A stretch of 41,044 nucleotides of DNA, from the UHGV virus genome UHGV-0106252, one strand, 5' to 3'. This DNA is from a virus. This document shows, one piece after another, positions 12,179 to 17,675 of this stretch (positions within the stretch are counted from its first letter, which is position 1; every line of letters begins with the position of its first letter). The translations under genes and the position numbers were made by a program. Below the pieces are notes generated by a model that saw nothing but the letters and a program-made list of their open reading frames with translations, searched no databases and was not told the origin of the DNA.

Positions 12179-12351
12179 GACGACAGCGACGAAGTTTCAC
12201 CGACATCATCTGCGAAAACTGCAAATACCTTCCAACCAAACGCTCCAGAAATAAACCCAAGCCAATCCCAAAAGAATCTGATGTGAAAACATTCAATTAC
12301 ACTGCTCACCTGTGGGATATCCGGTGGCTAAGACATCGTGCGAGGAAATGA
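12175..12351 (+). CDS. ninE: NinE
   Basis: [52 protein letters not shown] is close to lambda NinE. AGGAGG SD; ATGA overlap with ninB. Confidence 0.8.
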
Positions 12352-12353
12352 CA

Positions 12354-12704
12354 ATGGATTATTCACAGTTAAGTGATTTTGAAATTAACAAGCGAGTATT
12401 TAAAGCGATAGTTGGGGCAAAACCATTAGGTTATCCGCACAACGCAGATGGACGGTCTGTTGGCAATGAAGCAAATGGTAATTATCGATGGTACGACTAC
12501 TGCAATAACCCAGCAGACGCATGGCCGATTATCACTGAAAACAACATCAGCATAATTTTAAACAATCCCTCAATGCCGTGCGCCACAGACAACGCAAGGG
12601 ACTTGTTTGATGATGCCGGACCGAATGTTGGTGTCGCATATGACAATCCACTCCGTGCCGCCATGATTGTCTTTCTCATGATGCAGGACGCCAATAATGC
12701 TTAG
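12354..12704 (+). CDS. NinX-like protein
   Basis: About 117-aa ORF in ninX position; start could alternatively be the ATG at 12348. Confidence 0.5.
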   Translation: MDYSQLSDFEINKRVFKAIVGAKPLGYPHNADGRSVGNEANGNYRWYDYCNNPADAWPIITENNISIILNNPSMPCATDNARDLFDDAGPNVGVAYDNPLRAAMIVFLMMQDANNA

Positions 12705-12873
12705 CCCATCCCAATCCCTTCAATACCAGAAAGAAAGCGTCGAGCGAGCTTTAACGTGCGCTAACTGCGGTCAGAAGCTGCATGTGCTGGAAGTTCACAT
12801 GTGTGAGCACTGCTGTGCAGAACTGATGAGCGATCCGAATAGCTCAATGTACGAGGAAGAAGACGATGAGTGA
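12697..12873 (+). CDS. ninF: NinF
   Basis: MLSPSQSLQYQKESVERALTCANCGQKLHVLEVHMCEHCCAELMSDPNSS is close to lambda NinF. Not in the ORF track (58 aa). Confidence 0.8.
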   Translation: MLSPSQSLQYQKESVERALTCANCGQKLHVLEVHMCEHCCAELMSDPNSSMYEEEDDE

Positions 12874-13589
12874 GTTAATAAATGGCAATGCCATCAAAAT
12901 GACAAGCATTGAAATCGCTGAGTTGGTGGGAAGTCGTCATGACAAGGTGAAACAATCTATTGAACGACTGGCGGCTCGAGGTGTGATCCGAAATCCCCCA
13001 ATGGTGGTTTTCGAAAAAAATCAATAACTTAGGATTACTTCGTGGCGTAGAGGCTTACGTTTTTGAGGGCGAACAAGGTAAGCGAGACAGCATTATTGTC
13101 GTCGCTCAGTTGTCGCCGGAATTCACCGCTCGTCTTGTTGACCGTTGGCGAGAGCTTGAAGAAACTGCGGTTAATATCCCAAAAACGCTACCAGAAGCGT
13201 TGCGCCTTGCTGCTGATCTTGCTGAGCAGAAAATGCAACTGGAAAACCAGCTCGCAATTGCCGCACCTAAAGTTGAGTTTGCCGATCGCGTTGGCGAGGC
13301 CAGCGGAATTTTGATTGGAAACTTTGCAAAGGTTGTTGGTATTGGTCCAAACAAACTGTTTGCGTGGATGCGCGATCACAAAATCCTTATTGCTTCAGGT
13401 TCCCGGCGCAATGTGCCAATGCAGGAATATATGGATCGCGGCTATTTCACAGTGAAAGAAACAGCGGTCAACACAAATCACGGAATACAGATATCGTTCA
13501 CTACAAAAATCACCGGACGTGGCCAACAGTGGCTGACCAGAAAGCTGCTCGATAACGGAATGCTGAAAGTAACAGGAGAGGCTGCTTAA
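12866..13589 (+). pseudogene. Rha/KilAC-type antirepressor-like gene interrupted by a +1 frameshift in an A7 run
   Basis: Rha-like N-terminal part ends at a stop at 13025-13027; the KilAC-like remainder continues in another frame. Removing one A from the run 13014-13020 fuses them. Confidence 0.6.
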
Positions 13590-13879
13590 TGGTTAACCTA
13601 CGCAAAGAAGCGCGCGGCAGAGAATGCCAGGTACGTATTTACGGCGTATGCAATGGTAATCCTGAAACTACAGTTCTGGCACATTACCGGATGGCTGGAA
13701 TTTGCGGAACTGGAATGAAGCCTGACGACCTGATCGGCGCATGGGCTTGTAGCGCGTGTCACGATGAAATCGACCGACGCACAATGATTCTCGACAACAA
13801 AGACGCCAGACTTTACCACCTCGAAGGCGTGATCAGGACGCAGGCGATACTGCTGAAGGAGGGGAAGATTAAGCCATGA
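13589..13879 (+). CDS. DUF1364 (YbcO-like) protein
   Basis: 96 aa; ...IYGVCNGNPETTVLAHY...AWACSACHDEIDRR Cys/His motif typical of YbcO-like nin-region proteins. Confidence 0.55.
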   Translation: MVNLRKEARGRECQVRIYGVCNGNPETTVLAHYRMAGICGTGMKPDDLIGAWACSACHDEIDRRTMILDNKDARLYHLEGVIRTQAILLKEGKIKP

Positions 13880-13893
13880 ACTAATATCAGTTT

Positions 13894-14238
13894 GTGCTTC
13901 CATACCCGCCGTCGGTGAACACCTACTGGCGAAGACGGGGAAGCCAATACTACATCAGCGATAAAGGCGAGAAATACCGAAAAGACGTTCAGCAAATCAT
14001 CCGCCAACTCAAGTTAGACATTTTCACCAAATCACGACTCCGCATCAAAGTCATCGCAGACGTTCCAGACTCCCGCCGCCGCGACCTCGATAACATCCTG
14101 AAGGGTTTACTCGACTCCCTTATCCACGCCGGATTTGCGGAAGACGACGAGCAATTCGATGACATTCGCGTAATTCGTGGTGTGAAAGTACCAGGCGGAA
14201 GGCTTGGAATAAAAATCACCGAACTGGAGAACGTATGA
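13894..14238 (+). CDS. rusA: RusA Holliday-junction resolvase
   Basis: LPYPPSVNTYWRRRG...DLDNILKGLLDSL are RusA signature motifs. GTG start. Confidence 0.85.
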   Translation: MLPYPPSVNTYWRRRGSQYYISDKGEKYRKDVQQIIRQLKLDIFTKSRLRIKVIADVPDSRRRDLDNILKGLLDSLIHAGFAEDDEQFDDIRVIRGVKVPGGRLGIKITELENV

Positions 14239-17132: not shown

Positions 17133-17675
17133 ATGAATTATCCAACTATCGTTAACGGCATCGATTTCCGAGATCTGATTTTTGTGGCAAACAACGATCC
17201 GGTTACAGATTCTTTTATGGTGGCAAAAGCATTTGGAAAGCTGCCGAAGAACGTAGTTCGTGACATTGAACGAACCATAGAAGCTTGCCCTCCTGAGTTT
17301 GATACAAAGCTCAATTTTGAGCTTTGCTATAAAAACAATGAGTTACAGAATGGTAAGCCGCAAAAATTCTACCGTCTCCGCAAGGATGGGTTGATGCTTT
17401 TGGTTATGTCCTACACCAAAAAAGAAGCAATGCGTATCAAAATTGCTTACATCAACGCATTTAACTGGATGTACGCCATGCTTCAGGTTGGTCATCGTCA
17501 ATTTGAAGAAGAGAGAAATGCCGTAATGCTGGAGTACATGAAAGAGAAGGATGTTGCCAGCATGTCAGGTCGCCTGCTAAATCGCTGGGGCAAAATTAAG
17601 AAGCCACAGCTGATGGCTAGAATTGAACGCCTTGAACAGCACGGGCAAACCGTAATCCCCGGACTCATCAATTAA
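17133..17675 (+). CDS. Rha-family phage regulatory protein
   Basis: N-terminal ...PVTDSFMVAKAFGKLPKNVVRDIER... resembles the Phage_pRha domain. Confidence 0.6.
   Translation: MNYPTIVNGIDFRDLIFVANNDPVTDSFMVAKAFGKLPKNVVRDIERTIEACPPEFDTKLNFELCYKNNELQNGKPQKFYRLRKDGLMLLVMSYTKKEAMRIKIAYINAFNWMYAMLQVGHRQFEEERNAVMLEYMKEKDVASMSGRLLNRWGKIKKPQLMARIERLEQHGQTVIPGLIN

Follow-up and report, generated by a model that had tools for sequence, protein, structure and literature searches.

The closest described relatives of the gene considered here are the roi genes of the lambdoid phages. Roi is reportedly a DNA-binding protein that binds inside its own gene beside an IHF site, and it is said to inhibit lytic growth on IHF-deficient hosts; roi mutants are said to be viable and to gain growth on such hosts. 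The protein of phage HK022 was described by Clerget & Boccard (1996, as cited in PMC3430580 and PMC4587872), and in natural Stx2a phages the gene has been found interrupted by IS629 (PMC4587872).

The locus under study lies in the window, by which we mean the whole 41,044-nt stretch of DNA that was analysed. A gene of the same family is found there on the + strand, broken by a single extra A in a run of seven. We consider it highly probable that this is a real, inherited frameshift in a dispensable roi, that is, an ordinary young pseudogene from which slippage would yield only a trace of product.

Structure of the broken gene

The frame that opens with the ATG at 12866 reads GTG GTT TTC GAA AAA AAT CAA TAA across the homopolymer AAAAAAA (A7) at 13014-13020 (+ strand; read from the sequence and by script), and closes at the TAA at 13025-13027. 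This 5' fragment (12866-13027, +) encodes 53 residues that end in ...VVFEKNQ and comprise the HTH part of a Rha-like N-terminal domain. A second frame, open from 12987 to the TAA at 13587-13589, holds the 3' part of the gene in the +1 register (13020-13589, +), with the remainder of the Rha-like domain, a linker and a KilAC/ANT domain. When one A is removed, the two frames become a single ORF of 723 nt and 240 aa with the junction ...VVFEKINNLGLLRGVEAYVFEGEQGK... in it. The original prediction had described an antirepressor-like gene disrupted by one base in an A7 run, whose Rha-like part joins the KilAC-like frame once an A is taken out; the sequence and the script bear out both statements, including the junction. 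Its placing of the stop holds in part: the stop is premature, but the "four codons" said to separate it from the run are true only when counted from GAA. The TAA begins 5 nt past the run; between it and the codon with the last A stands a single codon, CAA.

We inserted or deleted one nucleotide at each of the 54 runs of at least 6 bases in the window. Only the A7 run at 13014-13020 rejoins the halves of a recognisable gene; the other fusions obtained in this way are gene junctions or antisense ORFs. A generally error-ridden assembly was considered and rejected, since with all 54 runs tested roi is the sole gene split by a homopolymer. The fusion obtained at roi is not a chance event, because the repaired protein is identical to a recorded protein and, in addition, has a strong ANT match.

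Identity of the gene and its domains

By homology and neighbourhood, the disrupted gene is identified as roi, a gene of the lambdoid nin region, which supports the Rha/KilAC antirepressor-like identity proposed earlier and gives it a more precise name. At 100% coverage it is 94.5% identical to HK629 Roi and 92% identical to roi of VT2-Sakai, and full-length identities of 92-94.5% are found with Roi-annotated genes in HK629, VT2-Sakai, the PA-series Stx2a phages and others. The P-Q interval of HK022 (from the helicase gene to Q) matches at 90.5% identity over 730 nt. In RefSeq, the prophage copies in E. coli are named "phage antirepressor KilAC domain-containing protein".

The domain assignments follow the same division. 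Against PF03374 (ANT) the repaired protein scores above the cut-off (9.3e-33), and the 3' frame alone matches Pfam ANT at 5.7e-33. The match of the repaired protein to PF09669 (Phage_pRha) is weak, 27.7 bits vs a cut-off of 29.9, and spans profile positions 1-91 and residues 12-99; the break leaves profile positions 1-26, and positions 27-91 fall after it. By itself the 53-aa piece matches Phage_pRha in Pfam over residues 12-37 only (E 1e-4, under the curated cut-off). In PHROGs the repaired protein belongs to phrog_63, "anti-repressor Ant" (4e-95), and the 53-aa piece matches end to end (1.4e-25) phrog_15709, a 59-position family of "unknown function". A search of solved structures by sequence gave no meaningful match, the only hit being ribosomal protein L5 at E = 0.13. 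The HTH helices are still present in the 53-aa peptide, and some activity might survive in it. Clustering of proteins at 90% lumps the 53-aa fragment with unrelated vWA and MoxR-like proteins, which is a database artefact.

The locus has the homology, the domains and the nin position of Roi, and it lacks the uninterrupted frame of ~240 aa. Because A7 puts a stop at 13025-13027, it is a disrupted roi allele (a pseudogene).

An IHF-core-like motif, AATCAATAACTTA, abuts the A-run at 13019-13031 (+) and is the window's only perfect match to WATCAANNNNTTR. One match was observed vs ~3 expected by chance, so that the count by itself lends the motif no statistical support. In HK022 roi the flanks have diverged, yet AATCAATGATTTA is retained at the corresponding position (L082, 3808-3820), and the motif at 13019-13031 may be the IHF site published inside roi.

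Neighbourhood and phage background

The gene order ninB-ninE-ninX-ninF-roi-ybcO-rusA-ninH-Q is shared by the window and by two further loci, L001 and L002. The stop of ninF (12697-12873, +; annotated in both of these loci, and assigned to PF05810 NinF in the identical locus L083) overlaps the roi start (ATGAGTGA). At the other end, the ATG of a ybcO-like DUF1364 gene (13589-13879, +; PF07102 YbcO) overlaps the roi stop in a TAATG. Translational coupling from roi to this gene through the TAATG would probably be lost in the A7 allele; the ybcO-like gene has its own AGGAG 10 nt upstream.

The rusA gene that follows (13876-14238, +) carries a premature TAA at 13882-13884, its codon 3, where orthologs have GAA. 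Four loci, all of the A7 lineage, have this TAA, and GAA is found in 38 other loci. A GTG at 13894 could restart a 114-aa RusA product. The rusA stop in the A7 lineage points to decay. Gene callers leave this Holliday-junction resolvase gene uncalled in the identical loci L083-L085.

A second Rha-family regulator gene, intact, is found at 17133-17675 (180 aa; phrog_518 at 2e-81). It stands where rha is found in P22, with the lysis genes on one side and the small terminase gene on the other, and its counterpart in L083 carries Pfam Phage_pRha and ORF11CD3. With roi broken, the phage is thus left with one Rha-domain protein.

The window is a P22-like mosaic phage, whose best matches (IME10 and similar) cover no more than 58% of the first 25 kb (~97% identity), and no damage is apparent in its head and tail genes. 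The window's ends (41044/1) meet in the torI(xis)-intS intergenic region. The junction lacks exactly 150 bp that are carried by a 39.4-kb circular relative (E. coli 0H26 "plasmid unnamed 4"; L097, 455-604), and the motifs GGGTAAAA/TTTTACCC are repeated on either side of it. A tRNA was sought at the 41044/1 junction and none was found there. Rather than a circular contig, the window may represent a prophage trimmed just within its att repeats.

State of the orthologs

The fused form is the norm among orthologs. The tract is A6 in 82 and A7 in 7 of the 89 fetched loci that carry it, and intact orthologs read GAA AAA ATC at this place. The top-listed orthologs are all 723 nt and not 724 nt long, and an alignment with three orthologs places a single-base gap exactly in the A-run. 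Comparison with intact orthologs had been proposed as a check on the original prediction, and it comes out in favour of a disrupted gene.

We scanned for the tract, allowing any run length from A5 to A9, and used a 66-nt probe for the E. coli complete-genome and phage records. A7 occurs once among the 59 tract-carrying loci on IMG/VR viral contigs (L033), once among 18 on metagenome contigs (L066), once among 171 in E. coli complete-genome records (strain TB354), and in none of the 46 loci in phage records. A collection with one genome per species gave no match, a result that is uninformative given such sampling. Altogether, A7 makes up ~1% of unbiased matches and the fused form ~99%. HK022 roi carries no homopolymer at the position of the A-run (ACTAACATAATCAAT), and the run is therefore a feature of one allele sub-lineage and not of the family.

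Indels elsewhere in roi also appear possible: on IMG/VR contigs, the A6 loci L012 and L051 have lengths of 724 nt and 722 nt, and L048, also A6, aligns with 3 gaps.

Inheritance, age and recurrence

The exact 53-aa product is found on 34 contigs (77 index blocks) drawn from NCBI, IMG, ENA and Logan, and its NCBI record is GAB0750325.1 from E. coli BT09F24. Three loci from different ENA metagenome assemblies match the window at 100% identity, L083 over 12.2 kb, L084 over 10.8 kb and L086 over 6.5 kb, and all have A7. Two more A7 loci, L085 and L066, differ from the window by 4-7 SNPs at 12237-12334, with one further SNP in L085. Judging from contig names (k127_, k141_, NODE_..._cov_), these are probably short-read assemblies made by MEGAHIT or SPAdes. 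Independent samples share the identical A7, and so do copies that have diverged slightly; the extra A is therefore inherited.

The SNP patch at 12237-12334, in the ninE region, is less than 100 bp long and resembles a small recombination tract, not scattered mutation.

The repaired protein is residue-for-residue identical to a protein found on 50 contigs, one of them a complete E. coli chromosome. Intact alleles with the identical protein show only 2-9 silent differences from the repaired window gene, and the closest of them (L091 and L095) differ by 2 nt, both synonymous. The lesion is therefore young, and since the differences from intact alleles are silent, the gene was under purifying selection until very recently.

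We looked up exactly the truncated products predicted for each N-terminal allele, with 7 backgrounds for A7. The A7 product (ending in ...FEKNQ) occurs on 6 of the 7 backgrounds, with 34, 18, 12, 11, 5 and 1 contigs; the A8 product (...FEKKSIT) on 3 backgrounds, with 3, 3 and 1 contigs; and the A5 product (...FEKSIT) on 2 backgrounds, with 4 and 1 contigs. With A7, A8 and A5 products on several allele backgrounds, the A-tract is a hot spot at which indels recur. Since Logan assemblies can include error-prone platforms, a part of the rarer A5 and A8 records may be artefactual. Two of the A7 loci can be traced to their intact sisters. The TB354 allele is 92% identical to that of the window and equals the intact L015, L021 and L041 except for the extra A, and L033 lies 13 nt from the window with an A6 allele as its nearest neighbour. 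TB354 and L033 are independent events.

A probable loss-of-function frameshift

These observations can be combined into a simple course of events. Replication slippage, a wholly ordinary mutational mechanism, would have added one A to A6, turning GAA AAA ATC into GAA AAA AAT C. Translation now stops after 53 residues, inside the N-terminal domain, with the KilAC domain left out of frame. The heritable A7 allele has spread with a nearly clonal prophage that is found in many human-gut samples, and it is probably tolerated since roi is an accessory gene. Full-length Roi, where polymerase or ribosome slippage produces it, would be a trace by-product and not a designed output.

We infer a loss of function without meaningful rescue. 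The loss appears tolerable, because roi is interrupted by IS629 in natural phages and roi mutants are reportedly viable; roi is thus probably a dispensable accessory gene, whose loss may sometimes even be advantageous. The original prediction had offered a sequencing error, an inactivating mutation and a slippage-based switch as possible explanations. Among the three, the inactivating mutation fits best, given a heritable A7, intact orthologs and no supported rescue.

Alternative explanations

The alternative that survives best is a switch: the A-tract would toggle Roi between ON (A6) and OFF (A7), or A7 would be decoded through programmed slippage or +1 frameshifting. This we regard as improbable. 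It is true that the tract is found at lengths A5, A6, A7 and A8, with A7 arising independently on at least 6 allele backgrounds. The tRNA-Lys is known to be shift-prone on A-runs, and a P-site slip of +1 from AAA to AAA, as read from the sequence, would give the native ...FEK-INNLG. ORFs disrupted at slippery runs can also still give a product (PMC1088944). Against a switch, the A7 form is rare among unbiased matches, and the lack of the run in HK022 roi means that the tract is not characteristic of the family. Within the window's clonal lineage we find A7 and three A8-type records, and among the loci read there is no A6 sister in the identical background. The second lesion, in rusA, indicates decay.

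The ways in which A7 could be rescued are few: the reading frame would have to shift by +1 or -2, or the mRNA would have to lose one A. A -1 ribosomal frameshift at A_AAA_AAU, of the classical A_AAA_AAN type, was considered and rejected, as the -1 frame closes after 5 codons (AAA AAA TCA ATA ACT TAG) and the KilAC frame is +1. For a +1 shift, the A-site codon AAU is neither a stop nor rare, the predicted RNA fold around and downstream of the run is no different from that of shuffles (z = -0.88), and no upstream frameshift stimulator is visible in the sequence. Phase-variable tracts typically have 8-9 or more units, and the tract here has 6-7. For slippage in transcription, 7 A's are too few: in a reporter study of E. 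coli RNA polymerase, slippage was undetected below 7 T's or 8 A's, and slippage by deletion on poly(A), the event needed here, was undetected (PMC6260861). In the same direction, genome-wide avoidance of A or T runs, a sign of selection against slippery runs, is evident only from ~9 nt (PMC1088944). What we find is a split that is not conserved in orthologs, a run that is too short and no stimulator, which is not the pattern of programmed slippage. With A7 in the minority, HK022 without the tract and a run below the slippage length of the RNA polymerase, the slippage-based switch of the original prediction goes unsupported, and the locus is very probably not a designed switch.

A related reading is that the A-tract, which adjoins the IHF-core-like motif, is a maintained hypermutable site which in lambdoid prophage populations turns Roi off (A6 to A7 or A8) and, by the reverse change, on again. 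For a pseudogene the A7 allele is frequent (34 contigs vs 50 for the identical intact protein), and this frequency, together with the A5-A8 variation over many backgrounds, would also fit such a hypermutable switch. If it were true, the toggle would hedge the dependence of lytic growth on the IHF state of the host, and low-level +1 slippage on A7 mRNA could add leaky Roi expression. We give this reading little credence.

It is very unlikely that the two pieces are genuine separate genes, one for a functional small HTH protein and the other for a separately translated KilAC-domain protein. Gene callers do call both pieces (GAB0750325.1 and GAB0750322.1), phrog_15709 matches the 53-aa piece over its whole length, and the allele persists in a successful lineage. 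However, the break falls inside the Rha-like domain, of which profile positions 1-26 alone survive in the first piece. The second piece has no convincing ribosome-binding site: its first in-frame start is the TTG at 13110, without a Shine-Dalgarno sequence, and the ATG at 13233 has only GAG upstream. The gene callers disagree on this start, giving 159 aa from the TTG vs 118 aa from the ATG. Orthologs are overwhelmingly fused, and the split alleles are recent, independent and 0-2 nt from their intact sisters. According to the original prediction, an A7 confirmed by independent reads with orthologs also split would argue for two genes. The A7 is independently confirmed and some orthologs are split, but two genes do not follow from this, as ~99% of matches are fused, the break is intradomain and the splits are recurrent and independent.

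Homopolymer indels are a classic error of 454, Ion Torrent and nanopore data, and a miscall of one base in a true A6, with a repaired protein identical to a common intact one, would look like this locus. Such an error is barely credible here and a sequencing artefact is effectively excluded, as the identical A7 is found in at least 5 other assemblies from different samples and studies, short-read metagenome assemblies among them, and in an NCBI E. coli genome, and no further homopolymer splits a gene in the 41-kb window.

Significance

For annotation, 12866-13027 and 13110/13233-13589 should be taken together as one frameshifted roi pseudogene and not as two hypothetical proteins. At least one NCBI genome has the two pieces as separate entries, and phrog_15709, the family of "unknown function", was seeded by the truncated piece and is a database artefact of the recurrent frameshift. 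In a prophage lineage frequently met in E. coli of the human gut, Roi has been lost, and full-length RusA probably as well. Should Roi hold back lytic growth under limiting IHF, as the work on HK022 suggests, its loss could slightly alter the induction of this prophage. The variation from A5 to A8 illustrates how indels recur in nature at one homopolymer of a dispensable phage gene.

Comparison with known systems

Genes that are expressed through slippage, such as Thermus dnaX (A9), Shigella mxiE (T9), Citrobacter tssM1 (A11) and IS elements (A9/T9), share with this locus an ORF split at a mononucleotide run, the two frames of which would be joined if the run in the mRNA had another length. 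Unlike in those genes, the run here has 7 A's only, the split is not conserved, and rescue needs a deletion on poly(A).

The resemblance to the roi genes of other phages is much closer. Like roi of HK022, HK629, VT2-Sakai, 933W-type phages and phi24B, the gene occupies a nin-region place between the replication genes and Q, beside ninF. With roi of HK022, HK629 and VT2-Sakai it shares 90-94% nt identity, a length of ~240 aa when repaired, and the combination of a Rha-like N-terminus with a KilAC C-terminus, and with HK022 roi an IHF-core-like motif at the equal internal position. It differs from the roi genes of the HK022 group in that its frame is broken by the +1A after codon 51; HK022 itself is without the A-run.

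Natural inactivation of roi has parallels. The Stx2a phages PST1-3 and PST1-6 of E. coli O157:H7 carry an IS629-disrupted roi and are otherwise complete (PMC4587872), with a transposon insertion in place of the homopolymer indel found here. The nearest parallel is roi of E. coli TB354 (NZ_AP038814.1, AC6I38_RS04520), which has the same A6-to-A7 insertion and the same ...FEKNQ* truncation, and which PGAP labels "frameshifted". Unlike the window's gene, the TB354 allele (92% identity) sits in a Stx-phage-like ant-roi-ninG mosaic; being a different allele in a different mosaic, it represents an independent event. The locus described here is a disrupted allele of a known gene, one that is already present in public databases and whose parallel allele PGAP has flagged as frameshifted.
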